Origin: Trypanosoma brucei
Taxonomy: Eukaryota
Reading direction: 5' to 3'
Length of the DNA stretch: 64,000 nucleotides
Assembly: GCA_000002445.1 (NCBI GenBank)
Contig: CM000208.1
Span: forward strand, 960,001-1,024,000
Shown here: piece by piece, positions 6,362 to 50,216 of the stretch
Position numbering within the stretch: position 1 is the first letter of the stretch
Layout: every line of letters begins with the position of its first letter
Made by a program: the position numbers and the translations under genes
Notes under the pieces: generated by a model
What the model saw: only the letters and a program-made list of their open reading frames with translations
Database searches by the model: none
Told to the model about the DNA's origin: nothing

Positions 6362-6391
<30 letters not shown>
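6362..6391. repeat. (TA)15 microsatellite
   Basis: Perfect tatatata... run in the spacer between the PA26 gene and the FHA-protein gene. Confidence 0.9.
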
Positions 6392-12266: not shown

Positions 12267-12485
12267 CACCGCAACGAGGCTAATTCAGATCTTTGTACCG
12301 TCGGGTTACACCTTTCCACCTCCTGCTCACTTAAAGAAAGGGAGAGAGGTTAAGGTTGCTACAACCCTGAACTCAGCTTCGATTTTGTGTTTATAAGTTG
12401 CCTTTGGACAAAATGGTGATGAAACCACAAAAGAAAGAAATCTGTAATCAAATACATGCATACATACGCACACACGCTCATAAGA

Positions 12486-16036: not shown

Positions 16037-16888
16037 CTACACAACAAGATCCGCCTCGGTCACATCATTATCATCTTTACCAGGACTCATGGACAGAAGG
16101 TTCGAAGCTGCAGCAGCGGCATTATCAGCAGCTTCTTTGCGGTCTTTGTTCTGCTGTAAAATTTTCTTCTTCTTCTGAATCATCTTCAAACGGAAGAACT
16201 CCTCACGTTCCTGCTCATCAAGCTCAGAGGAGATGTAATTCAACGTGTTTTCCATTCGTGGGATAACGACCTTCTCTAGTGCATTTACACGTCGACTTGT
16301 TACTTTCTGAGCGACGTCGAGTGTCATCCAACTTACTTGAAGAGAGGCAATTTTCACGAAAAGTTTGAGTGTTTCGCGGAAGGCATCTCGGGCTTCTCGA
16401 AGTTGCTCGCCACCACGACCGATACCGGCGGCGCTTGTTGCTTGTTGTTTGCTAGGGCCGCCTCCACTCCCGTAGTTTCCGTAACTGTTAACTCCACTCC
16501 TGGATTTATTGTTCTGTTGATTACCACCGGCAGCTGTGGACTCATCACGGCTATTACGTTCCGTAAAAGCGGGTACACGAACACCAGCCACGTTATCTAC
16601 GCGTAATGTCAAAGTGTATGTGGGAAGTTTCAACGACTCCTGTACAGCAAGACTAATGTCGCCCGCAATGAATTGTGCCTGTGTGATGGTAAAATAGGAA
16701 CCCTTTATTTGGTCCGCCACCTCCAGCTTTGCACGCCGCAATTCGTCCATAACAGTGCGGTAGCGGAAAGCGAGTGCATCCGCTTTCTTCTTTAGGAGCG
16801 AGTGTCCCTTTTGAGCTCCCTTTAGGCGGGTTTTGAAAGCAATCAGCGACATGCGACTGGGAAGAGCAGTGTACCGGTTCGATGACAT
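16037..16888 (-). CDS. V-type proton ATPase subunit D
   Basis: ATG confirmed (cat 16886-16888). N-terminus YTALPSRMSLIAFKTRLKGAQKGHSLLKKKADALAFRYR matches conserved V-ATPase D (Vma8) family sequence. Size 283 aa. Confidence 0.85.
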   Translation of the reverse strand: MSSNRYTALPSRMSLIAFKTRLKGAQKGHSLLKKKADALAFRYRTVMDELRRAKLEVADQIKGSYFTITQAQFIAGDISLAVQESLKLPTYTLTLRVDNVAGVRVPAFTERNSRDESTAAGGNQQNNKSRSGVNSYGNYGSGGGPSKQQATSAAGIGRGGEQLREARDAFRETLKLFVKIASLQVSWMTLDVAQKVTSRRVNALEKVVIPRMENTLNYISSELDEQEREEFFRLKMIQKKKKILQQNKDRKEAADNAAAAASNLLSMSPGKDDNDVTEADLVV

Positions 16889-21132: not shown

Positions 21133-24100
21133 CTAACTAGCCACAACATCAAAAAGCAACAACTGCGCCCGAACATGTAGTGGCAGCTTCCGGTGCTCGC
21201 GCACGTCATGAAACGACGTATTCCACATTTGACCAAAAGAGGAAAGGACGCTCACTACACTCTGCGCATAGTGCGCCTCCTCTTCCATGGGAGAATTGTC
21301 ATCGGCTTCAACCTGCTCTTCCCCTACTTCAGAAGAATCACTGCGGGGGAGCGGCAACTTTCCCTTCCCATTGCTACCGTTCCTTTTAGCATCACTTTGA
21401 CGAGTACCCACAACGCTATTTATCGCTTTCAAAGGACTCCGCTTACCATTCGCACTGCGAGTCTCCTTCTGGCGCTTTTTTTCTTGCTCTTGACGATGCA
21501 CAAAATGAAGAAATTCCTCAATTTCGTTGTTTAGGTATACGCTACCATTTTTGATTTCCGTATCTGAAAGATTCAACGACTCTCTCAATGGTTCGCCTGC
21601 CACTTGCGGAGGCGATGTGGACGAGGCCCTACTCAGCGCCATTGCGTGTTGCGATGACAAGGGAACTGACTGTATTTTAGTGAAATCCGATTTACTATGC
21701 CCCTTAGCCGGAGGAGGTGGACGTTTCTCCCGACGCTGTGGTGCCGCATAGACGTTCGTTTCCGGTGCTTGCGAGGGTGATCTTCGACAGCTGTCATGCA
21801 AGACAGAAAAATCCAGTGGTGTAACTAAGTTGGTTTGCTCTTCCCTCTTCTTACCCTCCCGCCCTGAATCCGACTTCTGCCTTACAACTAATCGTGTCTT
21901 TTCCGCAAAACAAGCCGCATCATCCGCGTTATTATTCAGACGCCTTGCTAGTGCCGAGGTCAGATGCACGGACTTCTCGCTTCCCCTCGCACGATCGGCT
22001 GTTCCGGTGCTCCTTATGGTACTGCCCTTCACCTGCAGTTTCTCTGACGTTCTTTCATCTACATTTCCTGTACTGATACTAACCGATCTTGGGCTCAGGT
22101 TGCCTTGTTTCTTTTCGTCCTCGTCATCACCTATGAGCCAGGACTGCGTCAAAGATCCAGAGGATGCATTTGACAGACTGCTTACTCCGTTTTGGTTTCC
22201 AACCGCAGCTACTGCACCCTCTGCACGTATCTCGTTTTCTGTAGCGGATCTGGAACCCATATCCAACTGCTTCGGGAAAAGTCCTACGAAAGTACTTTCC
22301 TTCCTTGGCGAGGATTGAAATGCAGAGCCCTCAATCCCTTTTTCTCCAGTAGAGCTACTGGAAGATGAACATCCGGGTGGTTTACTGCATCTGCGTTTAA
22401 GTGATACCCTTGCCTCATGTTCTTCCTGCATCAAAAGTAGTCGTTCATGGTTCTCGTCGCCGCAAAATAAAAAGAACGGGTCACCAACGAGGTTATCTAA
22501 ATTTTGTGTCACGGCATCGTCCAGAAGCTGTGCTATGGAGTGAGTCGAAGTAGTTCCTTGACATTTCGCTTTCGACAAATTCTGTGCATTCGGTTGGCTA
22601 GCACAAGAGCCTGAAAAAATGATTTTTTCTTTGCCTGGGCTCCCGGCTCCTGACGACGCCGAAGGCATGTTGCAATCTTTGTTTTTATCATTGCTGCTGG
22701 CCGCGATATCCGTTACAACAGTGGACGACGTAGACCCAAAAGGGCGACTCACATTACTGAAGTTGAGGTTGTAAATTGACGACACCATGATACTCGTGTC
22801 TGACCGACCATGTCCCTTAGGTATGTCTGAGCCAATACCCAAACTCGGCGCACTGGATGAATTGGCTGGAATACAAATATCGGATCGCTTGCTAACCTTC
22901 TCGTCATCACTAAAAAGCCGCCGGTACGGTCGTCTGAAGAGAAGTGGAGTGCCGCGTTCGATTATTCGTCGCTCGTTCATTTGCACTATGCGCGAAGATG
23001 CGGTATCATCCCTGTCACCTACATCGAGCGTTGAGCAATCGGACGGCACGGCGTTCGTGCTTTCGCATGAGTGCCGCTGTGTGCGCACATCAGCCAACTT
23101 TTCTCGAGAGAGCTGGTTCCTGTGTGCGCTACAGCAGTTAGGCCATCCACATCGAATGCGTTCCCGCAACAAAATAACTTGTCCCCGACGAACCAAATCC
23201 TCCTGCTTAATAGCTCCAGGGGTACGACGATCGTACAGCAAGTACTCGTCTTGTGGTTGTATAATGCTACGGGCCCATTTTTCTGTTACAACAGGACCGG
23301 ATGCAGACCGCTGGACACTGGATGAAAAACTGTTCATCGCGCACCCTTCATCATTAAAGTTGCTATTGCGAGCACTACCGTTGCTTATGCTTGGTGTACA
23401 AGCGCACATACTGTTTTTAAACAGACTAGCCTGACTGCCTTCTAATACCGTCACATAACTCCTGTCAGTGGCGAGGGGTTCGCTGTCAGATTTTCGTTTC
23501 CTTCCACATTTAACTTTTTTGCGTTTGCGTTTCTCCGAAGTTGTTGACTGCTGCACGACACCGTCAACACCAACTGCGCCGTCGCCCACCAATTTCTGGG
23601 GCTGCCGCTCTTCCCCTGAACGAGGATTCTGTTCCCGTAGTGGTAATTGTGCGATGATGCTGCAAGTGGACCCCGCTGGCATCTTTTCCCTCGTTTCCGC
23701 ATGTCGCTGCCGCACCAGTCTCGCAGATGGTGGGCAAACATCTCCATCTGTACAGGTTCCGCTCCCACCTTCCTTCAACAGTTGTCCCTGAGGATCGAGT
23801 GAAACTGTTCTCTCCACATTCTTGTTTCGCGCTGTTCTTTGAGAAGGGATAGAATGGGTTGCAATTGACCAATCAGGCTGGAGCGGCGGCCACCCAGAAG
23901 GGGGCTCACCAGATGCCACCTTCCAATTGCCGTTGGACAGAGATACGGCGCTGAGTTCGTGGGCGCTGTACAACGTTTTTACACGCCCGCTGTTGTCGCC
24001 GGCCGCATAGGAAGGAGAATTATACATCACTCTGCGTCTGGTAGCGATCGTCTTGATGGAAGTCGGGCCGACGGTGGAGGTATGCCCATTACCGTCGAGT

Positions 24101-24201
24101 AGTGGTGCTGGTGTCGCCGGAAGAGACATTACCGCGCTGCGTATGATAGTCCGGCCGCTGCGTGGACAATTACTATTCCCGGTGTCCTTTCGAGATATCA
24201 T
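21133..24201 (-). CDS. Hypothetical Ser-rich low-complexity protein with basic NLS-like cluster, 1022 aa
   Basis: ATG confirmed (cat 24199-24201). Uninterrupted 3-kb ORF in the transcription-unit orientation. KRKRKKVKCGRKRK cluster. No recognisable domain. Confidence 0.5.
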   Translation of the reverse strand: MISRKDTGNSNCPRSGRTIIRSAVMSLPATPAPLLDGNGHTSTVGPTSIKTIATRRRVMYNSPSYAAGDNSGRVKTLYSAHELSAVSLSNGNWKVASGEPPSGWPPLQPDWSIATHSIPSQRTARNKNVERTVSLDPQGQLLKEGGSGTCTDGDVCPPSARLVRQRHAETREKMPAGSTCSIIAQLPLREQNPRSGEERQPQKLVGDGAVGVDGVVQQSTTSEKRKRKKVKCGRKRKSDSEPLATDRSYVTVLEGSQASLFKNSMCACTPSISNGSARNSNFNDEGCAMNSFSSSVQRSASGPVVTEKWARSIIQPQDEYLLYDRRTPGAIKQEDLVRRGQVILLRERIRCGWPNCCSAHRNQLSREKLADVRTQRHSCESTNAVPSDCSTLDVGDRDDTASSRIVQMNERRIIERGTPLLFRRPYRRLFSDDEKVSKRSDICIPANSSSAPSLGIGSDIPKGHGRSDTSIMVSSIYNLNFSNVSRPFGSTSSTVVTDIAASSNDKNKDCNMPSASSGAGSPGKEKIIFSGSCASQPNAQNLSKAKCQGTTSTHSIAQLLDDAVTQNLDNLVGDPFFLFCGDENHERLLLMQEEHEARVSLKRRCSKPPGCSSSSSSTGEKGIEGSAFQSSPRKESTFVGLFPKQLDMGSRSATENEIRAEGAVAAVGNQNGVSSLSNASSGSLTQSWLIGDDEDEKKQGNLSPRSVSISTGNVDERTSEKLQVKGSTIRSTGTADRARGSEKSVHLTSALARRLNNNADDAACFAEKTRLVVRQKSDSGREGKKREEQTNLVTPLDFSVLHDSCRRSPSQAPETNVYAAPQRREKRPPPPAKGHSKSDFTKIQSVPLSSQHAMALSRASSTSPPQVAGEPLRESLNLSDTEIKNGSVYLNNEIEEFLHFVHRQEQEKKRQKETRSANGKRSPLKAINSVVGTRQSDAKRNGSNGKGKLPLPRSDSSEVGEEQVEADDNSPMEEEAHYAQSVVSVLSSFGQMWNTSFHDVREHRKLPLHVRAQLLLFDVVAS

Positions 24202-25224: not shown

Positions 25225-28200
25225 TTACCTCCGCGAGGTCCTTGCTCTTTTATTCCCCTTAGGGTAACTTTCATCCGCACTGCGGGCCCTCTTTCGGAGA
25301 GTGTTCGTTGTATCACGACGCGCCAACTCATCCTTTCTGGCATTTTTTATCTCCTCTGCCACTGTGGTCAGGGCGAAAAGAGCATCATCAACAGTAACAA
25401 AACTCCCAGTACACCTGTCACAGTTGCCGTTATTGCTCTTGTCCCTGCTAATCTTTCTTAGCTTCTTCCTTCCCTCTAATGGCGATACATTCACCGCTGC
25501 GTTTTCATCGTCGGCGTGTGCGCGGGCGGTGTCGTAGTCGTGTCGACGTGCTTCCAATTGCTCACGGAGAACGTAGGCAACCTGCGTTGCCAGTGTACTG
25601 AGCTTTTCCGACCGTCTGCCGCATCGCATGGCAACCGCCACGGTCGGTGCCACAGTCTGTTGTATGAATTCCAGGTTGATTGCATTGCACAAGAGCCAAC
25701 GAGCGACACTTCCGACGTCAACTCGTTCCCCTTCGTTAACATCACCGAGTGTTTCAGATGCGCTCTTGTTATCACCCCGGGACGTTTTTCGACCGTTGCC
25801 GTTAACACAGGGCATTGCAGCAACCAAACCACCGAAGCATTGCACAAGCGAAGCTGTACGCACCATCACATTTGTAACACTCCCATTTGATATTGCTGGT
25901 GCAGCGATTGAGTTAAACTGACGGCGCAGTGCCACGAAGTGTCTGGTAACAACCTCACGAACGTGAAGTAACCCCTCCTCACTCTCATTTGCAGTGGCGT
26001 TAACTAGGAGGGCCATACTAACTGCTGCCAGGGAACGTATCAAATACAGCGCAAGACGCACCGCATCGGTTCGCGATGAGCGAGCAATCGCTCGGTGTGC
26101 GGCGTACTTTTCGTTAGAGACATCCGACTGCGCAAAGTTAAGCAAGAGAAGTCGTAGTGAGGCAGATATCTCATTAAGCACTTCCTCCGCGCGATCTGTA
26201 TTGTCTATGGGGCCAGTCCCTCGGAATACCACCATGTACGGAAGAGTGTCCCCAGATGCAGTTGACGACGGTTGGATGGCCACCGCCGAGTTTCTGCTTC
26301 TTCTGGTCGGCTTTTGACTTGTGTCTTTTTCACTCCTTCTCCTTTTGCTCCCCAACACTTCCACTGCGCTAGTGACAAGATGTGCACCAACCCATCCATC
26401 ATCAACCAAATACGAGCACCGTGTTTCCACACCATTCGTACAGTACATACCCAGTAGCCTCAACGCCACCCCTCGCACCCAGGGATGCGTGTGCAGAATA
26501 AGACGGCCAGAAAGATACAGCACAAGGGGTTTGGCAAAGGTTACATCGTGCCACACAAGCGAGGGAGCAGCGCTAGCTATTGCTTCCACGCACCGCAAAC
26601 CAAAGAAAACGTACATCCAACCCTTCATTTCGATCTTTCGTCGCAAAGTTCCTGAAAGCTCCTCGGAACGTCGCCTGATGCGCGACGCACTAATTTGATC
26701 ATATGTTGCTGCGTCCATAATGGATGGTAGTGACCAGGTATAGTAAGTAGCGAACTCCTCCGCCTCTGCGGTGATACCCTTTGTATTATCCGAGCTTGAA
26801 TCATTGTCTTTCCCACTAAGTCCGAGAGCAGATGCAATGGCAGAAAGCATCAACGCCCAAGTTTGTAGAGCTATTGTTTTCCGTTTACGGGTTTGATCTT
26901 TTTCAAGCCATTTTGATAGTGTAGGCACAACAGTGTCAACACCGGCATTCCGCACCAAATCTTGAAGTGCCGTGCCCGCCTTTCTCCTCGCCTCAAGAAA
27001 CTCTGAGCCCGACAGAGTAACTGCGAGTGGGAGTAGCAGCAATGGAGCCTCCTGCCTCAGAACTACAGTGGGTAGTCGATTTATAAGGGCGATGAAGAGC
27101 TCCAATAAAGCGATACGACCGGTTACCTCTGGGTAATCCATGTTTCGGTATAATAAATCCATGTGCGACCGGAATTTTTCCGGTGTCATCCGATACTCTG
27201 TTAGGAAACGAGTGATAACGGAAATACATCGTTGGCGCATAAGCCGCTTAGCACTGACATGCAATAGTAACTCGGTCACTACACCCATCAATTCGTACAC
27301 CTCAACCACGTGCACGTGCCTACCGAGTACAGCGTAAAAAAGGGTTAGTGCCATAGGAGCAAACCGATTACGCTCAACCAGCTCTGCATGGCAAAGGCCT
27401 GTGATTTGTGACGCTTGTGCCTCCGTTAGCGTAAAACGCTGGTGGGATATTACCGACGCTGCCACTCGCATTGCCCGCTGCTTGACAGAACCACCTCGCT
27501 CAAAAAAGGCGGTAACGGTATCGTAAAGATTTGTATGATACATTCCCACGATCTTCAAAGGTGGACGCAACGAGAGAAGGGCCAGCATACAGTCAAGTGC
27601 GTACCCGATAACCGCGTCACTCCCCTCACCATGGAGTGTCGACAAAACAACAGGCACCAACTCTTCCAATAGTTGTTGGTAGTGTCGAGTGAATGATGCC
27701 GTCAAATCGGCTGAGCCACGTCGTTTCCTCTTTTCCGTCCGAACACATAATTTTTTAGACGGCTCCCCGGTTTCCTTTTGCCTCTGTTCGTCATCCCTCT
27801 CCTCGGCTTCAGCAGCAAATCGATCCAGTGCATCACCCTCTCTGTCATCCAAGTTCTCCGGATCGAGTAGCACGTCAGCCGAAGATACGCTGGAAGCATC
27901 TTGTTCTCCCTCTTCGTCCGATGCGTTGGTGTGAGTGATGTAGTTATCTCCATCGGTTTGTTCCTCCTTTTGTTTGTTTTTTGAGCGCAGGAGATCAAGA
28001 CGTACAGCAATCTTGGATGACTTACGCTCTTTTCCCATGCCGAGAACTTGTTTGAGCACACTCAGAAGGTATTTAAGAAGAAATTCATCCAAAGTGTCGA
28101 GAACCACTGCGGCTGTTGGGTCCTCACGATAAAAGTGCTTTGCTGCCTGTTTCACGTCTTTGCCGTATCGACCACGATACGTTCGGAGTTTCTGCTTCTG

Positions 28201-31200
28201 TTGAGTGGCTAGTACAGTATGAGCACTAAAGTCGACGTCCACTCGCTCCGGTCGTGGTGCGACAAGAAAATTAGCATCCAGTTGCTCACGACGCGTGGTT
28301 GCAATCACGGACGGGCGCTGTGCTATGAGCTGTGCGCTTCCTCGGATACGGCGGGTCCCTTCTTTTGCTTCGAACTTTTTAATCTTCTCTTCTCTCGTTT
28401 CGTTGTGGCGGTGAAGCAAGTCCCGCACCACACGAAATGAGCTTTCCACCTCCATGGTTGCGTTCTTGAGGAGGGCTCGGGCCACACGGACAGCCAGCAA
28501 ACGCACCTTCTGCACGAAAGCAAAGTCAGCCGCAGCGCTTTTGCCGATGGTGCTATACTTTGTCTTGAGTTCTTGAAGCAGCAGCAATGCGCCAGCACGC
28601 GCGCCACCGCCCCGGGTGTTAGTCTCCACGTTAGCTGCTTCGCTAGGAGGTGTGAGCAACCATGTTATTTTCTGCAGAAAAACTTCAATCACGCGGGTCG
28701 CCTGACAGTGTGATGCGATAAGTGTAAAACCATGCAGTGCCCGACTGCTCTTCACCTCAAGCATTGTGCTCATCAGTTCCACCTGCCGTTTCTGCTCACT
28801 CACCTCGCCAAGGTAGTCATCAAGGAGTATTGTCATGATATCGTCAAGACAGGCGGTTAAACACGAGACACCGTATTCGTAATCAAATTGAACAGCAGCA
28901 GGTATAATCATGCGTAGTAGCTCTTCTTCCTCGTCATCTTCGTGGTTGCCCGTTGTAACATCATCACCGCTCTTTTCCTTACTGTTACTCGTTTGACCAA
29001 GTGCGCCTCCTCCCTGCTTGTCGTGTTGTTGACTACCATTTGGTCTGATTGCTTCGCCACCTCCCACTACAGAATGCCGCGCCTTCGCCCCGGCTTCTTT
29101 GTGAAGTTTTTTTCCTGGTGTTTTTTTCCTCCCGTATGAAAGGGAGTGGCGCGGTTCGTAGAGGTTGTAAAGAAGTGTCACAACTGTGTAACCTAGAACG
29201 TGCAACTGGTAGCCATGCACTAAGTGATCCCGAAGCTTTGTAATAATGAAACCCAGTTTCCCCGGCCCAACCTCGCACATCATTGCACTGAGGACACGGC
29301 GCGCCCGCTCGCGATGTTTATCATTCTTCGTTCGGAGTTTCAGAACCACTTCATCGAGCAATTGCTCTGCATGCGAAGAGAACCTGTCAAGCGGAAAGCG
29401 CTTCACAATCTTCGTAATGGCGATTGCAACTGGTAACTGAAGGATAGTCGTGTTTTGTTGTGCCCCATCAGTCTTCCGCATTTCATCTCTAACACTTGTG
29501 GCAGTGTGAGCGCTTACAAGAACCTCAGACCCACTCGCATGAATACCACTTCTACGGGTGCCACTCGATAAAAAACCGTACAACTGCGGTAAGATGTCAT
29601 CCTCCATCACATGCATTATCCGTGCATTGCGATATTTAATGCGCTTAGCACGAAGTGTCACTTCCAAAGCTGCAGCCACTGCATCATCGTCATTTTCTCC
29701 ATCCTCATCCTCATCATAATCATCCCCCTGCGCTGTCTGAGGACTCTCCTCGGCGCCCTTTCTTTGCCGTCCATCTTCAGGAATATCATTATTATTATTA
29801 CTGCAGGTACCAATTTTATCATCGACACCTTCCTCCAAAAAATGGAAATGGTCGAGTACCAACACAACCCCCTGAAGCATCGGAAGCCGCAAGGAAGCGT
29901 TTTCCTGTGCATTAATAAGAAGCAGGCTTAGTAAACGGTAGTAACCCTCCCACGGCAACATACCTGCAACAGTTGCCACGGTGTTCAACAGCGCATCACA
30001 GTATCCCTTCGCACGTCCCTCCGTGAGGTTTTGTAGATCCCTTTTACCCTGCGCGAAGTCCTTCACGGTGGCCAAAAGAAACGGAACGAAAACACGGAGA
30101 GCGTCACGTGGATGCAACTGGTCCACCTTCTTCCGCAGAAGTGCAAGCGCATTTAGGCGACATCGGTGCTGTAAATGACCTATATTAACGAAGAAATTGA
30201 GCTCCACATTGCGGTCGTAAAGCGCAGCAAATGACCGGAATGAGTCTTTGTAGTGCTGCGCAAGGGCACCAAACACCTGCATGTGTGAGTTTCGAATATG
30301 AACGTCACGTGCCACAACACCCCGGCGTAGCGAGGGCAAGATGATCCGCCTAATGACTTGGTTGAGAATGAGTGTATCGTATTCAGCTACCCTCGTATTT
30401 TGACGTGATGCATATCGGATCATCGCTTCAACAACTTGAACAGCAAGAGCCGAGATGGTTCCCTCAGGATCGCGAAGGAAAAATACAGCATTCGAAGCCA
30501 AAACAAGGAAACCCTCCACGCAGAGCACCGGGGCCTCGAGGTCATCAAGTGGTATGGTGGAGTCAAAATCACCGCTATAATCACGCTCTTCCCTTACTTG
30601 GCTTTGTTGAGCACGCTTCCGTTTCCCAATGCTAACCGGCGCAGATTCACCACCATTATGAAAGAATTGCTGTAGCGTCCGCAGCGTATGGAAACGGAGA
30701 TCAAAGTCATAGCGATCTAGCGAGCTATTGTTATCATCAAAACTGTTCAGGCAAGAAACTGCCCGACCCACCGCGGCCAATTGTGCGGCGTAGCCCCTGG
30801 AGCCACGTTGCACACCGTCAAGGAGAAAATCGGTGTTTTCTTCGTTGCAGAAGCAACTAACAGGATCGGAAGAAGATGAAACCGCACCCATTTGTGTAAG
30901 CATAACGTTCAGCGTCCGGCAAAGTAGCAGCCGTGCCTCTGGGTTTGTCACTGCATTGAAAAGGTGCACGAGGGGTTCGTAGTGGAGCAGCACGTTAATA
31001 CGATGAACGTGTGGTAAAAGATATTCCAAAACCCCAACTGCTGCCACGCAAGTTTCCCGGTCCTTCATACAAGCTGGATGGGCGACAAAGGCAATACACA
31101 TCTCTAGAAGACGGGACAACATTGTATTTGTATCTTCCGAATTAGCGTGCTTCCCCCCAGCAGACTCCTTCTCCTCGGCATTTTGCTTTTCGATTACTAC

Positions 31201-34200
31201 AACATATTCAGTGAGCATGGAAACGGTCGCAATCAGCTCCTTCCACATAGAAACACTAAAAGACATAACGGTTGTGGCGGGTCGGCCCCCCTTATCCCTC
31301 GACGCGGGGAAACGAGTGTTCTTTTCCCTGACACCACATGAAGCACCTCTCCTGATGAGTGTGTACAAAGATGTGAAAATTTCAGAAACATGAGGTTCGA
31401 CAAACATGACACGTAAAGTCGATTGCTCAGTCGCTCCAAAAACATTAATCTGCTCATCACTAGCATTTAGAAGTTCAGCGACACAGCGCAATCCTTCGTG
31501 CAAGGCCAGTACTGCAGTTTGTTGTTGATTATTTCTCGATAAGACCGATAGTCCCGAACCACTGGTATTGGTGGTTCCGGTAACCGTCGAATTTGCAGCA
31601 AATAACTGTTTAATCATCTCCGTAACAGCACCTGCGAATGTGCCAACGAGCGGCAGCGTATGCGGTGAAGCTATCCAAGCGCGTACCAGACGCATAAACG
31701 GAGTCGCAGCTGCTCGTTGGCTGTCGCCAATCAACTCGGCCACAGCACCTCCACCGTTCATATGCAGGGCAGCGACATAACGGGAAATAAGACTGTGCTC
31801 AACTGAAGCAGCACCAGTATCGCCGCTCCCTACACCGAGGTCAGCACGAAGGGTTTCCATAACCTCAGCGGGAAACTGCTCAAATAAAGATGCTACCATC
31901 GTCGCTGCTCCACGGCGCATCCGAGACATGAGTGACTTCAGTGCTGAAGAGCTTAGTGCACTTTTCACGCGCCACCCAATCTCTTCTTGGGTCGCTCCGT
32001 CGTCACAAGCACCGCCGTTTATTCCAGGGAAAGTGGTCGCACTCAATGGGGCGAGTAGGGTTTGTTTGCAACTGATAAGGTACGCGTTTATCCCAAGTAG
32101 TAGACAAGTGCCTGCGAACGAGGAGAACCCCTTTCCGACCGCCTGCAGAAGTGCACTCAACAGTTTTGTGGTGTTCAGCAACTGCCGCAGTAGACGCTCA
32201 AGGCGGCGTGTACAATGTGTTTGTTCTCTTACCCACTTTTCCCACCAGCTGCCGAAACAAAAGACCCCACTTCCTGCAGCCTTTGTTGGTGTGACATGCT
32301 CAACAATGAGTCTCTGAACAAGTCCGTTAAGGACAGCTGTAAATTCTCCTCTGTCCGTGAGGTGCGTAACAAAAGCGAGTAGTCGACGCTGGAGAACCGC
32401 CTGATCCTTCACTTTATCCCGTGAAACGCTGCTCGTCAGTTTGGGGAGAGCAACAGTAAGCGCAGTTGCGATATAATCGGCCCGATGCTCCTGCGGTACG
32501 TCAGTCTCCACGTGAAAACTTGAAAGAAAGTTGAAAAGGTTCTGCTGAGTGTCGCAGAATGGGACAAGCTGACGGTAATAACGGGAAAACGGTGCGACCT
32601 TAAGACGCCGTAGTAGATCAATCGCTGCCCGCTGTAGTTTGGTATTTGAATCTGATACAAGACTTGCACAAATTCGGTGGAGCCGTTTAGTTAAGAGGGT
32701 TGCATCCTCCCTTGATTGGCCCGACGGCTGTAGGGGAGACTCTTCTTCTGTGTAGGCGACTGTAGCGGCTGCTGTATAGGCATTTAACGCCAACGTGAGA
32801 CGTTCGTCCAACATCTTGAGATGACGTATGCCGCTTGGGTGCTCCCCACATCGAATCGCAGATAACTCAACCGCTAACTCCGCGACAAGTGAATCTTTGG
32901 TGTCGGCTGCCGATCCTCCACCCGTTCGAGCCATGTCCGATAGGCCCGAAAGAAACGTCTTTGCCAACACAGCACGATCTGTTGCGTGACGTGCTGCAGC
33001 TCTACCATGTGTGTATGTTGGTGAAACAGCCGGGAGGTAATGTCGTTCCCACATCAATATTTCACCATCGTTATTTACCAGTAACAACCAAGTAACAGTG
33101 GAACTTTTATACTGTGCTGTAGAAAAGTCCTTGCTTACCAGCTCGCCCTTCTCGTGTCGCTGCATATCTGTCAGTTGAATTCGATAAAAGAGTGGGGAAC
33201 TGCTGCTATGAATGGACGACTCAGTGCCCTTGTAGTTGCTGGTACTGTTATTATTGTAACAATCATCAGTATCGCACTCGTTAGAAGCGGATGACGCAAC
33301 CCGAACAATGTCGCCTAAGACAATGGAGCGTGCGTACCGGGAAATAACGGTCTCCCACACAAGGGGGTCAAGTAAACTTTTACAATCCTCAACCTCTTCG
33401 TTGTCACCGAAAGGGGACCCGTCGTCTCTCAGCTGATGTAAACCGGTGCCGTGCCGTCGAGCTACTGTATCCTCACTTTTCACCAGATCGGAGAGAATCT
33501 TCAGTGCAATGGGCCAGGCGACAGAATATTTTGTGTGCAGCAGCCCCATCATTGCCCTTGCGAGAATCACTCGCCTCAGGGGCTCACGCAGCGCTCCAGA
33601 AGCGGCATCAAACGATAACTTCGCAAGTGCTTGCTGAATACCGTCCAGATTTCCTGCCGATGAAAGAGGATTAAAAAGTTCAGCGCGAAGTAACGAATCG
33701 AAGAATGTCGGATCGACCGAACTGCAACCAGAAACCCTTTTAGTATCTTCCACTTCAGGGTGACAGAAAAGCCTCAGCAGGCGCAACGCTACGACGCGCA
33801 ACGACTGTATCGGTGACACAAGAGCCTCAAATAAAAGCGTATGGACCAAAGCACGTTGTGACTTGTCGTCCAATGTTTCATGTAGCCGCGCCGTTGCTCT
33901 AAGAAAGGTTTGCCGCTGTTGTGATATTTGCTGTGATACGACGTGGCCCTTCGCCTTTTCCTTTTTATGAACAGCTACAGTAGCTTCACTACCTTCTCCA
34001 TCTGCTACGAGGCTCTCTTCCACACCAAACAATCGAAACATAGCATGCAACAGGCATTCCATACCGTGTAGTAACCGTCCCACCTCGCTATCACCCAAAA
34101 TCACTACGCGATGCTCCTCAAAGCTAGTCGCAAGAATTACAACGGCATCCCTAATAAACTCCATGGAGTCTTTATCACTTTCCGGTGCACCGCAGAGGGG

Positions 34201-36930
34201 TGCCAATTGCATGAGCAAAGCCGAAGCTTGTGCGAACAGAGCAAAAGAAGAAGCAGTGACACGTGCAGAAGTAGCGGATGGCGCCCCATGCACAGCCAGC
34301 TTCACCGCTGATATCACCTGTAATAGCGCATCGCGAAACTGCCAAGCGAACAAGGCGTTTGCCTCGGCGGGCTCATTTCCTCGTGTTTGTCTCAGTGTGG
34401 TGCGTTCTGCCTCGGCAACAACGAGGGCAGGAGGAAGAACGGCAATCAGTACATCGGCCCACTTAGCTGCTTTCGTGCGTGCTGTGAATGCTTCAGCAGC
34501 ACTTTGCAAGGATGTAAACAGCGCAGCAGTGCCAAGCAAAAGTGTCTGAATGTCCTTCATTAGCGTGACGCGTTCCTCAAGAGACAAATTATTATTGTTA
34601 TTATTATTATTTCTCTTTTTACTTCCCTCACCAAAGGCGGTGGTAAGGGTCGTCGTGGTCAGCAGGTGTAAGGGGCTCACTGAAGTGTTTCTTGTGCGAT
34701 CGCACATCATCCCAATCATCATAACCGCGTGGGTTGTGTCACGAAACGCTATCGACTCTTCATCCGGACCCGAAGAGTGACTAGCTTCGTCCCTGTCTTC
34801 AAGAGTGTCTCCGCTGTTAAGCTTAGAGAGAGATGCGTTTGCCATTTTACACGAGGCATGAAGCACTGGTGCTAGAAGCGCATACGCGAAGGAAGTCAAC
34901 CGAGACTTTACCCGGTCAGAGCCACTTCTACTTCGACCTACCGTTCCCATTTGGTTTGCGCTCTCCTCATCGTCACGCTCATGAATGATCCGTTCTTGCC
35001 GCAAGCTGTAGGCGTAGTTTTTCTGCAACACATCTTGCACAAACGCAAAAAGCAAAAGCCGCGTTGAAGTTTGCAGCTCTAAATCCAACGTTACACCTTG
35101 AGGACCAATAGACCCATCACCTTTGAAAGAGCTAACTGACACGCACGTTGAGATGATATCACGGCAAAGTGGCAGGCACAGATCGTGTAATTTGGCCATG
35201 TGAGAGCGCGGCACCATCCCGGTATCAACACATAATGGCGTAAACAACTCGAGTGCGGCACCACAAGAGCGTACGAGATGACACCAACCTGCCGTTGGAT
35301 GTCCACATATCGCAACATCGTTGTGTGCCAAGGTTTCCCGCCGGTTTGCCAGAAAAAATTGTAGTTGTTTTGCCATTTGTCGTATCGCCGGTAGCGAAGC
35401 GCCCTTCCACAAAAGTAAACAATCCTTGGCATGCAATAACTGCTGAAGTAGATGCAGAAAAGGAGCAGTGAAGTCAAGCGTTGCCACCACGGTCGTCAGC
35501 ATTTGCAACGGTGGTGAGTGCACGCTTCCACTATCATCTCTATCCTCCTCAAAATCATCATCAACATCACCCATTGAGGCGGCAGTGGCTGAGGAGTTGG
35601 CAGTCTCCTCAATCAAAGTGCGGAGAGCGCTGCCGATCGAAGTGGCTCCGATCATTTGCACCAGCTCACCAAGTACTCCGGTTTGGGTATCACCATGCTG
35701 TTGCACGAATTCCACCCCTTCCTTTTCGTATTCTTCCCGACTCTCAAGAAACAACTCTTTCCAATGGGTATAATGGGCAAACCCTTCGGCTTCCTCCACT
35801 GTGAAACCGAAAAATTCTTGTTCGTTTACTCCGTACCCAGAATCGTAAGCACTTGAGAAATTTGTGCGCTTGGAAAGACCAAAAACGTATATTAGCACGA
35901 CGTAAAAGTTCTCAAAATTTGTATTGAGTGAGCCACGAATTCCACGTAGAACATCAGCAGCGAAGAAACACAAACTATCAACAACTGGAAGGAACGAGAG
36001 ACGTTCCTTCTGGTACCTTAATAGTCGGTCGAGTGTCAGAGCATTTGTTTTTGAACCCATCACTTCCCTTACCCTATTGCCTTCCTCATGGTGAGTACCA
36101 ATCGTACCATGACTTTCCTCATATTCCTCTTCGTTATCCATTCCGTCAACATCATCGTCTGCGCCGCGAACCTTGCGTGCATCGTCACCACAGTAGTCTT
36201 TGAAATCGTGCACAACATCGACACACATTACTTCCAACACTAACGGAAGCAACTCACGCGTCATTCGACATGTCGACGCCAGGACTTCGGCTGCCAACCG
36301 CCGTATGTATTCCTTTGAATCATGCATCTGTCGCACGTACAATTTAATGACAAGTTCGACCAGCTTTCGTTGCTCCTGCAGGAGCCAAAAGGGTCGCATT
36401 TCACGGCACCACGCTGCCTGTGCAGAGAAAATAAGTTGCAGGCGTCGAGTTTCCGCCAGAAGCTGCCCGTTCGCGTCATATATACCCCCATTAATGGCCT
36501 GATGGAAGCATTCAAAATATAGAAAAAACTTTTCACGCATGTCCCGTGCAAAGGCCACGGTGAGTCGAGCAAATGCTTCAAATCCCTCAGCGAACTTGTC
36601 ACGGTTCATCATGGCAAGTAACAATTTTTGGGCTATCTTACGGTGATTAAGTTGAAACAATGCGCGTGAACTGCACAAATCCAGCACCTCCCACCGGAAA
36701 CTCTTAAAATCTGTGGTTGAGTGAGAAAGCATTTGCTCGTTCAATTCAGTAAGGAAGGCACAATCCTCGCTCTCGGGATGTGGCGCCCAATCATCGGTGA
36801 ATCCACCGGCAGGTTGCATGTTTATCGCCCCGAGGACGTTGTAGCCAATACCCACGTGTACATGCTGTACGGCGTTGCGAAATATCTTCTCACGTCCGCG
36901 GGCATTGTGACCACGCTTTTTTGGTGGCAT
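25225..36930 (-). CDS. Giant HEAT/ARM-repeat protein, tentatively UTP20/DRIM-like SSU-processome component, 3901 aa
   Basis: GTG at 36976-36978; first ATG is codon 17 (cat 36928-36930). An 11.7-kb uninterrupted ORF. Alpha-helical repeat composition throughout. N-terminal block (WEVLDLCSS...ARLTVAFARDMREKFFLYFECF) resembles the UTP20 N-terminus as I recall it. Strongly basic C-terminal tail (KRARSADESYPKGNKRARTSRR). Confidence 0.6.
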   Translation of the reverse strand: MPPKKRGHNARGREKIFRNAVQHVHVGIGYNVLGAINMQPAGGFTDDWAPHPESEDCAFLTELNEQMLSHSTTDFKSFRWEVLDLCSSRALFQLNHRKIAQKLLLAMMNRDKFAEGFEAFARLTVAFARDMREKFFLYFECFHQAINGGIYDANGQLLAETRRLQLIFSAQAAWCREMRPFWLLQEQRKLVELVIKLYVRQMHDSKEYIRRLAAEVLASTCRMTRELLPLVLEVMCVDVVHDFKDYCGDDARKVRGADDDVDGMDNEEEYEESHGTIGTHHEEGNRVREVMGSKTNALTLDRLLRYQKERLSFLPVVDSLCFFAADVLRGIRGSLNTNFENFYVVLIYVFGLSKRTNFSSAYDSGYGVNEQEFFGFTVEEAEGFAHYTHWKELFLESREEYEKEGVEFVQQHGDTQTGVLGELVQMIGATSIGSALRTLIEETANSSATAASMGDVDDDFEEDRDDSGSVHSPPLQMLTTVVATLDFTAPFLHLLQQLLHAKDCLLLWKGASLPAIRQMAKQLQFFLANRRETLAHNDVAICGHPTAGWCHLVRSCGAALELFTPLCVDTGMVPRSHMAKLHDLCLPLCRDIISTCVSVSSFKGDGSIGPQGVTLDLELQTSTRLLLFAFVQDVLQKNYAYSLRQERIIHERDDEESANQMGTVGRSRSGSDRVKSRLTSFAYALLAPVLHASCKMANASLSKLNSGDTLEDRDEASHSSGPDEESIAFRDTTHAVMMIGMMCDRTRNTSVSPLHLLTTTTLTTAFGEGSKKRNNNNNNNNLSLEERVTLMKDIQTLLLGTAALFTSLQSAAEAFTARTKAAKWADVLIAVLPPALVVAEAERTTLRQTRGNEPAEANALFAWQFRDALLQVISAVKLAVHGAPSATSARVTASSFALFAQASALLMQLAPLCGAPESDKDSMEFIRDAVVILATSFEEHRVVILGDSEVGRLLHGMECLLHAMFRLFGVEESLVADGEGSEATVAVHKKEKAKGHVVSQQISQQRQTFLRATARLHETLDDKSQRALVHTLLFEALVSPIQSLRVVALRLLRLFCHPEVEDTKRVSGCSSVDPTFFDSLLRAELFNPLSSAGNLDGIQQALAKLSFDAASGALREPLRRVILARAMMGLLHTKYSVAWPIALKILSDLVKSEDTVARRHGTGLHQLRDDGSPFGDNEEVEDCKSLLDPLVWETVISRYARSIVLGDIVRVASSASNECDTDDCYNNNSTSNYKGTESSIHSSSSPLFYRIQLTDMQRHEKGELVSKDFSTAQYKSSTVTWLLLVNNDGEILMWERHYLPAVSPTYTHGRAAARHATDRAVLAKTFLSGLSDMARTGGGSAADTKDSLVAELAVELSAIRCGEHPSGIRHLKMLDERLTLALNAYTAAATVAYTEEESPLQPSGQSREDATLLTKRLHRICASLVSDSNTKLQRAAIDLLRRLKVAPFSRYYRQLVPFCDTQQNLFNFLSSFHVETDVPQEHRADYIATALTVALPKLTSSVSRDKVKDQAVLQRRLLAFVTHLTDRGEFTAVLNGLVQRLIVEHVTPTKAAGSGVFCFGSWWEKWVREQTHCTRRLERLLRQLLNTTKLLSALLQAVGKGFSSFAGTCLLLGINAYLISCKQTLLAPLSATTFPGINGGACDDGATQEEIGWRVKSALSSSALKSLMSRMRRGAATMVASLFEQFPAEVMETLRADLGVGSGDTGAASVEHSLISRYVAALHMNGGGAVAELIGDSQRAAATPFMRLVRAWIASPHTLPLVGTFAGAVTEMIKQLFAANSTVTGTTNTSGSGLSVLSRNNQQQTAVLALHEGLRCVAELLNASDEQINVFGATEQSTLRVMFVEPHVSEIFTSLYTLIRRGASCGVREKNTRFPASRDKGGRPATTVMSFSVSMWKELIATVSMLTEYVVVIEKQNAEEKESAGGKHANSEDTNTMLSRLLEMCIAFVAHPACMKDRETCVAAVGVLEYLLPHVHRINVLLHYEPLVHLFNAVTNPEARLLLCRTLNVMLTQMGAVSSSSDPVSCFCNEENTDFLLDGVQRGSRGYAAQLAAVGRAVSCLNSFDDNNSSLDRYDFDLRFHTLRTLQQFFHNGGESAPVSIGKRKRAQQSQVREERDYSGDFDSTIPLDDLEAPVLCVEGFLVLASNAVFFLRDPEGTISALAVQVVEAMIRYASRQNTRVAEYDTLILNQVIRRIILPSLRRGVVARDVHIRNSHMQVFGALAQHYKDSFRSFAALYDRNVELNFFVNIGHLQHRCRLNALALLRKKVDQLHPRDALRVFVPFLLATVKDFAQGKRDLQNLTEGRAKGYCDALLNTVATVAGMLPWEGYYRLLSLLLINAQENASLRLPMLQGVVLVLDHFHFLEEGVDDKIGTCSNNNNDIPEDGRQRKGAEESPQTAQGDDYDEDEDGENDDDAVAAALEVTLRAKRIKYRNARIMHVMEDDILPQLYGFLSSGTRRSGIHASGSEVLVSAHTATSVRDEMRKTDGAQQNTTILQLPVAIAITKIVKRFPLDRFSSHAEQLLDEVVLKLRTKNDKHRERARRVLSAMMCEVGPGKLGFIITKLRDHLVHGYQLHVLGYTVVTLLYNLYEPRHSLSYGRKKTPGKKLHKEAGAKARHSVVGGGEAIRPNGSQQHDKQGGGALGQTSNSKEKSGDDVTTGNHEDDEEEELLRMIIPAAVQFDYEYGVSCLTACLDDIMTILLDDYLGEVSEQKRQVELMSTMLEVKSSRALHGFTLIASHCQATRVIEVFLQKITWLLTPPSEAANVETNTRGGGARAGALLLLQELKTKYSTIGKSAAADFAFVQKVRLLAVRVARALLKNATMEVESSFRVVRDLLHRHNETREEKIKKFEAKEGTRRIRGSAQLIAQRPSVIATTRREQLDANFLVAPRPERVDVDFSAHTVLATQQKQKLRTYRGRYGKDVKQAAKHFYREDPTAAVVLDTLDEFLLKYLLSVLKQVLGMGKERKSSKIAVRLDLLRSKNKQKEEQTDGDNYITHTNASDEEGEQDASSVSSADVLLDPENLDDREGDALDRFAAEAEERDDEQRQKETGEPSKKLCVRTEKRKRRGSADLTASFTRHYQQLLEELVPVVLSTLHGEGSDAVIGYALDCMLALLSLRPPLKIVGMYHTNLYDTVTAFFERGGSVKQRAMRVAASVISHQRFTLTEAQASQITGLCHAELVERNRFAPMALTLFYAVLGRHVHVVEVYELMGVVTELLLHVSAKRLMRQRCISVITRFLTEYRMTPEKFRSHMDLLYRNMDYPEVTGRIALLELFIALINRLPTVVLRQEAPLLLLPLAVTLSGSEFLEARRKAGTALQDLVRNAGVDTVVPTLSKWLEKDQTRKRKTIALQTWALMLSAIASALGLSGKDNDSSSDNTKGITAEAEEFATYYTWSLPSIMDAATYDQISASRIRRRSEELSGTLRRKIEMKGWMYVFFGLRCVEAIASAAPSLVWHDVTFAKPLVLYLSGRLILHTHPWVRGVALRLLGMYCTNGVETRCSYLVDDGWVGAHLVTSAVEVLGSKRRRSEKDTSQKPTRRSRNSAVAIQPSSTASGDTLPYMVVFRGTGPIDNTDRAEEVLNEISASLRLLLLNFAQSDVSNEKYAAHRAIARSSRTDAVRLALYLIRSLAAVSMALLVNATANESEEGLLHVREVVTRHFVALRRQFNSIAAPAISNGSVTNVMVRTASLVQCFGGLVAAMPCVNGNGRKTSRGDNKSASETLGDVNEGERVDVGSVARWLLCNAINLEFIQQTVAPTVAVAMRCGRRSEKLSTLATQVAYVLREQLEARRHDYDTARAHADDENAAVNVSPLEGRKKLRKISRDKSNNGNCDRCTGSFVTVDDALFALTTVAEEIKNARKDELARRDTTNTLRKRARSADESYPKGNKRARTSRR

Positions 36931-37281
36931 CTCTCTTTTTTTTTCAATTCCAATCAACTTCACCAACGGTTGTTCCACCGTGGGGGAATAATGGAGGTTT
37001 TAGGTATAATACCAACGTAATCTGCACACTTGCTCGAGCGTATCCCTCTTCGACAGTAGATGGGTAAGAGGAAAAAGACACTCCACCAACGAACCAAACA
37101 CGGTGAATGAACCTACAATGTACAATATTAAGGTATAGAAGAGAAAGAAGTAAGGTTTTTCTTTTTTAAAAAAGTATACTAACATTTTTTTAGGACGGCA
37201 AAACGTCGCGAATGAATTAGCAGCAATGGGAAATAGAAAAGGCAGCAAGTCAAATCAATGTACACGAACCGAGTACCTCAT

Positions 37282-40998: not shown

Positions 40999-42786
40999 TC
41001 AGAGTGTTTTTGCCCTGTATTTGTCGCTTCCATGAACTCTGTCGATCAACAATACGTTCGGTACAACTTCGTTAAACGGCTGTTGTGAACTTCCGGTAGG
41101 GTTATCCCGACGATCCACAATTTTTTTACTGGATTGGAGGACATCTTCACCCCTTCCACGTGTGAATGTGTGCCGCATGTCAGCGTAATTAACATTGCGC
41201 GAGATGATAATAAGCAACAATATCACGAAGAGAGAGTACAGAGAACTGCTTTCGTGCCAACGAGTCGGTGCCCACTCTGCAAGCACCGGGGTAGAAACCT
41301 GTCCGGAACTATGATCGTCGACAGAGTGGAGGCGGCTGGCGGCACCATAGTGACGGTTTCGGATCATGGCACGCCGCTTCCTACCCTGGGAAACAACGTC
41401 GAGCAAAAAACGTGCTTCACCAGACTCTGTGAAGTTAGCATTATTATTTATTGTTCTCTCATCGCCCTTTACGAGCAGTTGTTTGACTCGACAGGGAATG
41501 TAAAGAATCCCACGGATCACACGTTTAAACAGACCGCGTTCCGTCACGTCTGCTTTAAATGCACAAAGAACCGAGTAATTTCCGGGGAGTGGCAGTGTCG
41601 GCTGAGCATTTCTTATCTGATGTTCCGCGTCGTGGTGATAGCGGCGCCCTCGCGCCAGAAGACACGATGGAATTGTCGCCTCAGTTAAGGGAGATACTCC
41701 TCCGTTACGGTTGCTTTCACTGCTTGCTCCCTTACAGACGGTCCCGCCGAGTCCATCGGAACCATTTTCATGAAACACTTGCGTGTTCGCAGTTGAGGTG
41801 GTGGAAGAAGGAGAGGAGGACCCCCTGGTGTTAGTGTTACCGCACCCGCTTGTGTCAGCATCAGACCTGTCATGAGTATGAGCGGGGCTGGCAGTCCACC
41901 GAGCACTCCATGGGGAGCAAAGTGCCTCACGAATGAGACTCCCCAGTCCGCGTGAAGAAGCAGCCGATCTCAACCCTGGGCGTCCTTCTTCTACAAACGG
42001 TGTCAAAGACGCCTTTTGTAACCTGTCCGCACCACACGGCGTTGCTCCAACCGTATTGAGGACACCTTCTCCTCCCTCCTCAAGTAACGTTTCCCCGCAG
42101 TAGTTGTTTTCGCTCCCCTCGCGCCTCCCTTCCAGAGACTTAATTAGCCGTTCCTGCTTCAGCTGCTCCTGTAAGAACAATTCATCTGTACACCACGCAA
42201 TTCCAACCGCCTCCTCACGGGAAGCTCCATTAACTCGGCCGTCTTGCACTTTAGATTCCGTTCCGCACACTGCGGAACTGTATAAATTGTTCGTGGAAGG
42301 CGCAGAAACAATCAGGGGGCTTTGATAAACCGCCCGGGCTGCGGCGACGGGATCCTCAAACTTGACGTAGAACCAGTTTTGCTGGCTGCTGTGACCAACA
42401 ACCGAAGTAGAAGTCAGCCCACCGCTGGGTACAGCCGCTCGTGTAGGGAGTTTGTGCATCAGTGTGCGGCCAAACATCACGTCCAGACTCTCACGAACAT
42501 CTAGAATCGATGTAGGTAACACACCGTACACAGTAACCCATTGTTGCCCAGCGTATGACGGTGTGGCTGCTGCTTGATCCGCATGTGAAGCCGCGGAGGC
42601 AGTGGAAAATACCGCAGGGTGTTCGCCCTTCTCTTCAAATCCTTCAGGAACGAAACCAACACGCACCGGTAAGCGCTGAGGTCCTGATGTGTACGTGCAA
42701 GGTTGAGGTGGCGAAACCTGTGGCTGCTTCGTCCAACCCTTCCGCCCCTTGCGTTCAACCCACTGCCCAATATCTTGCTTCCACAT
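40999..42786 (-). CDS. Nup53/Nup35-type nucleoporin-like protein (RRM/MPPN-like domain plus C-terminal TM segment); candidate TbNup65
   Basis: TTG at 42793-42795; first ATG is M4 (cat 42784-42786). WVTVYGV...NWFYVKFEDPVAAARAV resembles the Nup35 RRM-like domain (WVTVFGF...NWMHI...A..A). Hydrophobic segment LYSLFVILLLIIIS near the C-terminus. Confidence 0.5.
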   Translation of the reverse strand: MWKQDIGQWVERKGRKGWTKQPQVSPPQPCTYTSGPQRLPVRVGFVPEGFEEKGEHPAVFSTASAASHADQAAATPSYAGQQWVTVYGVLPTSILDVRESLDVMFGRTLMHKLPTRAAVPSGGLTSTSVVGHSSQQNWFYVKFEDPVAAARAVYQSPLIVSAPSTNNLYSSAVCGTESKVQDGRVNGASREEAVGIAWCTDELFLQEQLKQERLIKSLEGRREGSENNYCGETLLEEGGEGVLNTVGATPCGADRLQKASLTPFVEEGRPGLRSAASSRGLGSLIREALCSPWSARWTASPAHTHDRSDADTSGCGNTNTRGSSSPSSTTSTANTQVFHENGSDGLGGTVCKGASSESNRNGGVSPLTEATIPSCLLARGRRYHHDAEHQIRNAQPTLPLPGNYSVLCAFKADVTERGLFKRVIRGILYIPCRVKQLLVKGDERTINNNANFTESGEARFLLDVVSQGRKRRAMIRNRHYGAASRLHSVDDHSSGQVSTPVLAEWAPTRWHESSSLYSLFVILLLIIISRNVNYADMRHTFTRGRGEDVLQSSKKIVDRRDNPTGSSQQPFNEVVPNVLLIDRVHGSDKYRAKTL

Positions 42787-43392
42787 TGCAAGCAATAAAT
42801 TACTCCCTCTTGATCCGGAATGTAGTTAAGCCTTCAGGGGTTTACGAAACACGTTTTTTATGATTAATATCAGTTAATTATGATGTTTTTTCTCCTTTTT
42901 TTACTTTCTATTTTCGCTCCTTTATGAGCGTATAAAGTTGTTGAACCCGTTACCTACGTGCCATTTGCGTTTAAGCACGACGCGAAGATTGTTGAATTGT
43001 AATTGAGAGAAGCATAAATAACGAAGGTGATGTTGAGGGTGCATGGTTTCATATGGAGCAAGGAGAAAGAAGCAAAGTGAAGATGTTCACGAAAAAAAGG
43101 AGTGGAATGCTCAGTGGGTGAGCGAAGCGGTGAACCAATCACAACTTGTTGATCTATCAAAAAGCACTCACTCCTAGTGAATTTACATTTCCTCCATGCC
43201 CACGAACATGAGGTATAACTCAACATTTCAGATTCTTCCGGAAGATCACAAAACACCAAGAAGAATACAAAAGGTAGTCGAAATGCGGTATAAATGAGGG
43301 GAGGTTCGAAGAAAATTCCGAAAAGGGGCGACAGCGCACTAAGGTAAGTAAAACCTCCTTCTATTCTTTAGGAAACACGACCCCCTCCTTAG

Positions 43393-50160: not shown

Positions 50161-50216
50161 AACAAAAAACAGAAGAAACAAAGAAAACAGAAGAGACAAA
50201 GGAAGAAAAAAAATAA
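50161..50216 (-). promoter_or_regulatory. Polypyrimidine tract upstream of the 2147-aa ORF
   Basis: 56-nt near-pure purine run on plus (acaaaaaacagaagaaacaaagaaaacagaagagacaaaggaagaaaaaaaataatg), about 330 nt upstream of ATG 49836. Confidence 0.4.

Follow-up and report, generated by a model that had tools for sequence, protein, structure and literature searches.

A stretch of 64,000 nucleotides from Trypanosoma brucei (contig CM000208.1, positions 960,001 to 1,024,000 of the forward strand; hereafter the window, in whose coordinates all positions are given) carries an 11.7-kb gene for a giant helical-repeat protein. We conclude with a probability of roughly 93% that this protein is the T. brucei orthologue of UTP20, apparently present in a single copy, and that its ~1100 extra residues are additions specific to kinetoplastids, scattered over a UTP20 body that stays collinear. 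UTP20 (DRIM in humans) is a nucleolar protein and, among the HEAT-repeat scaffolds of the small-subunit (SSU) processome, or 90S pre-ribosome, the longest.

It should be said at the outset that both the identity and the anomalous length of the protein were already known, because a recent paper (PMC13248013, J Proteome Res 2026) describes it as TbUTP20, with 3901 residues, and points out its excess size. The lengths given there are 3915 residues in T. cruzi, ~4180 in Leishmania, 2493 in yeast and 2785 in human, and the expansion is noted across the trypanosomatids. The name “UTP20” and the accession “Q38BM0” are both absent from the supplement text of that paper, and “Q38BM0” is absent from the paper texts searched. 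The gene is thus an unremarkable find: an orthologue, described before and expanded in its lineage, of a familiar scaffold of ribosome assembly. What is new beyond the published identity is the collinear alignment with canonical UTP20s, the map of the inserts, their dating with the help of Bodo and a diplonemid, and the structural confirmation of residues 2100-3299.

The Gene and Its Start Codon

An earlier note on this DNA, made from the letters alone, had described an uninterrupted open reading frame (ORF) of 11.7 kb and 3901 amino acids (aa). The ORF list and the translation bear this out; the strand was missing from that account and is the minus strand. Counted from a GTG, the frame at 25225..36978 runs for 3917 codons, and its first ATG, at 36930, yields the 3901-residue product. 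At ~50% GC, with a stop frequency of 3/64, the probability of ~3900 stop-free codons is P ~ e^-188, so chance cannot account for the frame. The start at 36930 is supported by the N-terminus itself (MPPK..G....G..K.FR), since M1, P2, P3, K4, G7, G12, K15, F17 and R18 are invariant in eight kinetoplastid orthologues.

The translation is identical to a protein of T. brucei brucei TREU927 chromosome 10 (XP_822628.1, EAN77800.1, UniProt Q38BM0), which is annotated as “hypothetical protein, conserved”. Orthologues of the same length from T. b. gambiense and T. equiperdum fall with it into one 90%-identity cluster, and the 3901-aa ORF recurs in T. b. brucei, T. b. gambiense, T. equiperdum OVI and a Logan assembly. 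In the reference genome of T. brucei it has stood as a “conserved hypothetical” since 2005. In the DPX39 assembly of T. b. equiperdum the locus is annotated as three proteins, RHW69574.1 (477 aa), RHW69030.1 (1408 aa) and RHW69134.1 (638 aa). As all other genomes carry one 3901-aa ORF, the split most likely reflects frameshift errors of that assembly.

Assignment to the UTP20 Family

The assignment is carried by two Pfam models, both well above their curated cut-offs. The UTP20 model PF20416 is matched at E=1.3e-34 (120 bits against a cut-off of 27), in two stretches because an insert at residues 2591-2678 splits the domain. The UTP20_N model PF07539, formerly called DRIM, is matched at E=1.1e-17 (64.1 bits against 27.6). 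Its best stretch, residues 1741-2087, lies in the middle of the protein and not at the N-terminus, where the note had seen a UTP20/DRIM-like block. The resemblance of the N-terminus to that of UTP20 is nevertheless real: residues 6-243 match three proteins of canonical length (2356-2790 aa; P0043, P0045 and P0047) at E=5e-17 to 3e-8, and all three carry PF20416. At E<=1 the Pfam scan returned, besides the UTP20 models, only a sub-threshold RasGEF_N_2; an embedded foreign domain was thereby ruled out. The same scan showed neither the U3snoRNP10 nor the BP28CT domain, which would mark a HEATR1/UTP10 member.

Sequence searches against the PDB led to the same family. The full protein returned UTP20 chains only, from human (7mq8_SP, 6e-23), Chaetomium (6rxu_UT) and yeast (6ke6_RP and 7suk_SP), with the matching blocks in collinear order, and a profile of the eight kinetoplastid orthologues again returned UTP20 chains only (7mq8_SP, 7.6e-42). 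The match to Chaetomium Utp20 (2612 aa; 6RXU) stands at E=5e-20 and that to yeast Utp20 (2493 aa; 6KE6, 6ZQB-D, 9G33) at E=1.6e-16. Human UTP20 (1A6/DRIM, 2785 aa; chain SP of 7MQ8, 7MQ9 and 7MQA) shares the all-helical HEAT architecture and the GYQLHVL motif, and it is collinear with the T. brucei protein over residues 50-160/39-146, 1039-1148/640-745, 2190-2590/1515-1912, 2688-2750/1918-1980 and 3163-3330/2194-2358 (T. brucei/human). The T. brucei protein is 1116 aa longer than the human one, the excess growing progressively along the chain, and identity in the structural alignments is 13-15%. Near the C-terminus, a block at residues 3091-3363 is common to human, yeast and diplonemid UTP20 and matches P0043 and P0045 by BLASTP at E=1e-33 to 3e-36.

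The nearest canonical-length relative that we found is the UTP20 of the diplonemid Artemidia motanka (2790 aa, from an EukProt transcriptome), which carries both PF07539 and PF20416. When a profile of nine kinetoplastid-type sequences was compared with a profile of seven canonical-length UTP20s by hhalign, a single collinear alignment was obtained, joining T. brucei residues 3-3497 to Artemidia residues 43-2515 over 2385 columns at E=4e-129. Of five segments aligned separately, four fell at their expected collinear positions at E=9e-5 to 8e-8: T. brucei 1015-1149 with 634-753 (9e-5), 1423-1691 with 928-1117 (8e-8), 1894-2092 with 1232-1381 (3e-7) and 3437-3498 with 2457-2516 (7e-6). The fifth, T. 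brucei 244-700, gave a weak collinear match of residues 315-353 with 285-323 (E=0.005, probability 7%). Homologue searches returned only this gene or orthologue fragments from Trypanosoma and other kinetoplastids, with no second family among them; the T. brucei proteome was not scanned directly.

Where the Extra Residues Lie

By chain length the protein exceeds human UTP20 by 40% and yeast Utp20 by 56% (PMC13248013), in agreement with the ~40% excess over a typical UTP20 that the earlier note had put forward. When the global alignment was parsed, 25 inserts of at least 15 aa were found, which together hold 1110 residues. They range from 15 to 113 aa and are dispersed along the chain rather than gathered in one block. 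The largest lie at residues 355-424 (70 aa), 798-845 (48 aa), 969-1012 (44 aa), 1201-1247 (47 aa), 2591-2678 (88 aa) and 2971-3083 (113 aa); the C-terminal region past the last anchor is also ~130 aa longer. Most of the gain is held by residues 244-1348, where 1105 aa stand opposite ~582 aa of the diplonemid protein, so that the region is almost doubled. Within it, residues ~354-1014 amount to ~660 aa where a canonical UTP20 has ~310.

Internal duplication was ruled out as the source of these residues: aligned with itself by hhalign, the protein gave off-diagonal probabilities of at most 0.2%, and self-BLAST returned the identity match only. Judged by such sequence comparisons, the extra length represents neither a fusion nor an added domain, and it has not arisen by internal duplication. 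Of the explanations that the earlier note had considered, lineage-specific inserts are the one upheld by the insert map, the collinear alignment and the conservation in kinetoplastids. Two compositional details of that note also hold up. The Asn run is encoded by aat aat aat aat aac aat aat aat, close to the positions 34585-34615 first given for it, and the acidic stretches reach 28-35% Asp plus Glu in the 60-residue windows 241-300, 2371-2430 and 3001-3060.

Conservation and Age of the Inserts

Full-length relatives were collected by an exhaustive search of representative sequences and named by cluster look-up. They comprise Leishmania (Viannia) species (4175-4181 aa), Bodo saltans (3532 aa) and five assemblies (3486-4153 aa), and some of the Leishmania records are already named “Down-regulated in metastasis”. 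The Leishmania (4181 aa) and Bodo (CUG87949.1) proteins can be aligned end to end with the T. brucei protein at 35-38% overall identity and have their inserts at the same positions. Identity within these positionally shared inserts is 18-23%, as against 40-49% in the core columns. The insert lengths are shortest in the free-living Bodo and longest in Leishmania, with an insert occupancy of 0.51 in Bodo and ~0.82 in Leishmania; the expansion therefore predates trypanosomatid parasitism and later kept growing. The Artemidia protein, a single transcriptome model, is without nearly all of the inserts, so that most of the expansion falls on the stem of the kinetoplastids, later than their split from diplonemids.

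One further protein bears on the age of the expansion. P0042, a UTP20 relative of 3850 aa from an ENA metagenome (contigs of 39-46 kb), is similar in length to T. brucei UTP20 but shares only ~30% core-column identity with it, and is thus far more distant than Bodo. The expansion may on this account be older, or wider within the Euglenozoa, than the kinetoplastids alone.

The inserts are not all of one kind. Those in the C-terminal half have a predicted local distance difference test score (pLDDT) of 39 against 75 for the core, and a helix content of 0.39 against 0.69. They are charged and of low complexity, with three such loops, one of them inside the Pfam UTP20 domain, and they are probably disordered. 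In the N-terminal third the inserts are predicted to be as helical as the core (0.66 against 0.68), and we tentatively regard them as extra or longer helices that would lengthen the superhelix.

Predicted Structure

The AlphaFold2 model of residues 2100-3299 has a mean pLDDT of 67, with 706 residues at 70 or above. In a Foldseek search of the PDB, a check that the earlier note had proposed, the top 14 matches of this model were UTP20 chains, with human UTP20 the best of them (7mqa_SP, 1.7e-18); the superposition of the 9g33_UT chain gave a query TM-score (TMq) of 0.50 and a root-mean-square deviation of 6.1 A. The first match outside the family, importin-beta, follows about 12 orders of magnitude behind (1.3e-6, TMq 0.16), and the human HEATR1/UTP10 chain 7mq8_LM reaches 1.2e-4 with a TMq of 0.13. 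This model and that of residues 1-1200 are both all-helical apart from loops, and the composition is rich in Leu and Ala, which fits the alpha-solenoid that the earlier note saw throughout the chain. That note had regarded the lack of a UTP20/DRIM profile match, together with structural likeness to another family, as what would speak against UTP20. Both profiles are matched and UTP20 chains are the best structural matches of residues 2100-3299, and the UTP20 assignment stands for this reason.

A short segment of the modelled region stands out in another way. Residues 2857-2938 (28117-28362) are near-invariant in kinetoplastids, with motifs such as GTRRIRG and FLVAPxPERVDVDFSAHTVLATQQKQKL..YRGRY, and can be aligned to canonical UTP20. 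Despite this conservation AlphaFold gives them a pLDDT below 50 and little regular structure. The segment looks like an extended one that would fold only on an RNA or protein partner in the processome.

Weighing the Alternatives

Several points weigh against the conclusions drawn above. The AlphaFold model of residues 1-1200, built on a six-sequence alignment, has a pLDDT of only 52.9, and Foldseek matches it to generic solenoids at TM<=0.19; it is for these reasons unusable for family assignment. Searched alone against PDB sequences, the same residues gave only chance low-complexity matches at E>=0.025. In the segment-wise alignment residues 354-1014 had no independent match to canonical UTP20, so that the homology of this part is drawn solely from its flanking anchors and from collinearity, and the N-terminal third as a whole is weakly supported. 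Where exactly an insert begins and ends in the N-terminal half hinges on a profile alignment of low similarity. A literature search found no nucleolar localisation or knock-down data for the T. brucei UTP20 gene, and the PDB sequence searches found no kinetoplastid UTP20 or SSU processome structure that could link inserts to rRNA.

These gaps at the N-terminal end leave some room for a different giant alpha-solenoid of the Tor/Tra1, karyopherin, BLTP or HEATR1/UTP10 kind, with a merely superficial likeness to UTP20. The low-confidence model of residues 1-1200 does match karyopherins and generic solenoids about as well as it matches Chaetomium Utp20, and residues 354-1014 cannot be called on for UTP20 independently. 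We nonetheless regard such an identity as very improbable: both UTP20 Pfam models are above cut-off and no other family is, the PDB sequence searches return UTP20 chains and nothing else, UTP20 aligns with the protein collinearly over its entire length, and the structure of residues 2100-3299 is specific to UTP20 by ~12 orders of magnitude, with the UTP10/HEATR1 chain trailing at the level given above. It is harder still to believe that the excess length is artefactual, with two neighbouring genes joined through faulty assembly or annotation, or that it comes from a UTP20 fused to an unrelated protein or domain. The three-protein annotation in DPX39 would fit a merger, but the 3901-aa ORF is found in independent genomes, and orthologues of 3486-4181 aa are present in Leishmania, Bodo and kinetoplastid-like assemblies. 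UTP20-homologous anchors sit near both ends (residues 3-243 and 3437-3498), there is no foreign Pfam domain, and the additional residues are dispersed.

A more serious question is whether the extra residues of this UTP20 do anything. Loops and helices may have grown by drift in a solenoid that tolerates such growth, much as low-complexity tracts have expanded in other proteins of trypanosomatids, and the extra residues would then be functionally neutral. The low identity of the inserts, their lineage-dependent lengths and the roughly half occupancy in Bodo are what one would expect of such growth, as are the charged, low-complexity, low-pLDDT character of the inserts in the C-terminal half and the trinucleotide-repeat Asn run in one insert. 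It is more difficult to reconcile with neutral growth that the insert positions have been kept since the common ancestor with Bodo, and that the inserts of the N-terminal third, which match the core in predicted helix content, would make the superhelix itself longer. UTP10, the second HEAT giant of the processome, has moreover expanded in parallel, and RRP5 has become much shorter (PMC13248013); the growth of the one and the shortening of the other suggest a remodelled architecture rather than general bloat. Neutral growth is in our view a possible explanation of the extra length, if on the doubtful side.

Features of the Gene

The positions of the main features are collected in Table 1. The earlier note had called the C-terminal tail strongly basic, which is true of the last ~25 residues and not of the last 60, whose net charge is only +5. 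The kinetoplastid consensus likewise ends in a basic tail, and by its residue pattern the tail may be a nuclear localization signal (NLS).

Table 1. Features of the T. brucei UTP20 gene, with positions in the window
Feature	Residues	Position	Strand	Basis
Complete coding sequence, 3901 aa and stop	1-3901	25225..36930	-	ATG at 36930, stop at 25225-25227; ORF translation, exact identity, Pfam UTP20 and UTP20_N
Conserved UTP20 N-terminal block	3-243	36202..36924	-	phmmer against P0043, P0045 and P0047 (E=5e-17 to 3e-8); first hhalign block
Most expanded region	244-1348	32887..36201	-	hhalign insert map; includes residues 354-1014; all-helical model of low confidence
Asn8 run, (AAT)4 AAC (AAT)3	N774-N781	34588..34611	-	lineage-specific loop, within insert 765-781; 0% helix, pLDDT 36
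UTP20_N (formerly DRIM), best stretch	1741-2087	30670..31710	-	PF07539; hhalign anchors at residues 1423-1691 and 1894-2092
First half of the Pfam UTP20 signature domain	2492-2594	29149..29457	-	PF20416; invariant HGYQLHVLGYT (residues 2572-2582), pLDDT 79-90
Charged low-complexity insert, 88 aa	2591-2678	28897..29160	-	splits the signature domain just after HGYQLHVLGYT; pLDDT 37, helix 0.22; occurs in other kinetoplastids too, with little conservation
Acidic/basic insert, 113 aa, the largest	2971-3083	27682..28020	-	35% Asp plus Glu in residues 3001-3060; pLDDT 41
Conserved C-terminal HEAT block	3091-3363	26842..27660	-	phmmer against 7mq8_SP and 6ke6_RP; pLDDT 80-92
Basic tail, LRKRARSADESYPKGNKRARTSRR and the preceding residue	last 25	25228..25302	-	bipartite-NLS-like pattern, by direct reading of the translation

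Genomic Neighbourhood

All 16 large ORFs of the window are on the minus strand, as is every ORF of at least 200 aa with coding support, and each 2-kb bin of 1-64000 has a negative GC skew. Such a pattern is that of a polycistronic unit of trypanosomatids, and the window is therefore read as one transcription unit of this kind, without a switch of strand. Scans of the window found no tRNA and no Rfam family at the gathering threshold, and the only tandem repeats are (AT)22 at 6347-6390 and an 18-mer present twice at 50166-50201.

The neighbouring genes, all on the minus strand, encode a RING-finger protein (XP_822629.1; 37494-40520), a Nup35/53-type RNA recognition motif protein (40999-42795), a PA28-like proteasome activator (5185-5898), V-ATPase subunit D (16037-16888) and a Snf7/ESCRT-III protein (54849-55511). 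Other proteins of the window have CBS, FHA, SET, endonuclease/exonuclease/phosphatase and TPR domains. The 2159-aa ORF at 57025-63504 (-), with scattered WD40/beta-propeller matches around residues 350-450, 770-870 and 1370-1535 and all family-specific propeller models far below their cut-offs, is a giant multi-propeller protein. Four more ORFs on this strand, of 2147 aa (43393-49836), 1022 aa (21133-24201), 639 aa (51893-53812) and 481 aa (10824-12269), are without a Pfam match at E<=0.001, and XP_822627.1, the 1022-aa product among them, is annotated as “hypothetical protein, conserved”. No functional link between the neighbours and UTP20 is evident.

Functional Implications

What UTP20 does is best seen in yeast, where it is the longest protein of the 90S particle. 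Yeast Utp20 winds some three quarters of the way round the 5' apical subdomain of 18S rRNA; the protein wraps the 5' domain, displaces or supports the expansion segments (ES) ES3A and ES3B, and links the 5' domain with the central one, in which its contacts are Sof1 and S7 (PMC5354517; bioRxiv 10.1101/175547). In T. brucei, TbUTP20 was enriched in a pull-down of TbUTP6, while for TbPNO1 only the unfiltered pull-down data contained it (PMC13248013). Collinear homology and co-purification with TbUTP6 make the role known from yeast, that of scaffold and chaperone, the best-supported one for TbUTP20. Judged from the homologous yeast and human particles, the T. brucei superhelix would curl around the 5' domain of nascent 18S rRNA, brace ES3 and extend as far as the central domain, and would keep these rRNA domains fixed until the early cleavages are complete.

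As for the additional length, the likeliest idea is that it may accommodate the enlarged kinetoplastid pre-18S rRNA: a longer solenoid with charged loops could make room for larger ES3, ES6 and ES7 segments, or for lineage-specific partners. The authors of PMC13248013 likewise suggest an accommodation of the enlarged trypanosomatid SSU expansion segments. One could go further and propose that residues ~354-1014 and the positionally conserved charged loops together form a kinetoplastid-specific module that cradles the large 18S expansion segments or recruits lineage-specific assembly factors; this proposal we put forward as a speculative and rather unlikely one.

The insert map offers concrete targets for deletion, and it would help in interpreting the density of a future kinetoplastid SSU processome structure. 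The differences between trypanosomatids and their hosts in ribosome biogenesis are of interest as drug-target space. If the module proposed above does exist, part of TbUTP20 would give an essential machine a surface that is structurally distinct and peculiar to the parasite.

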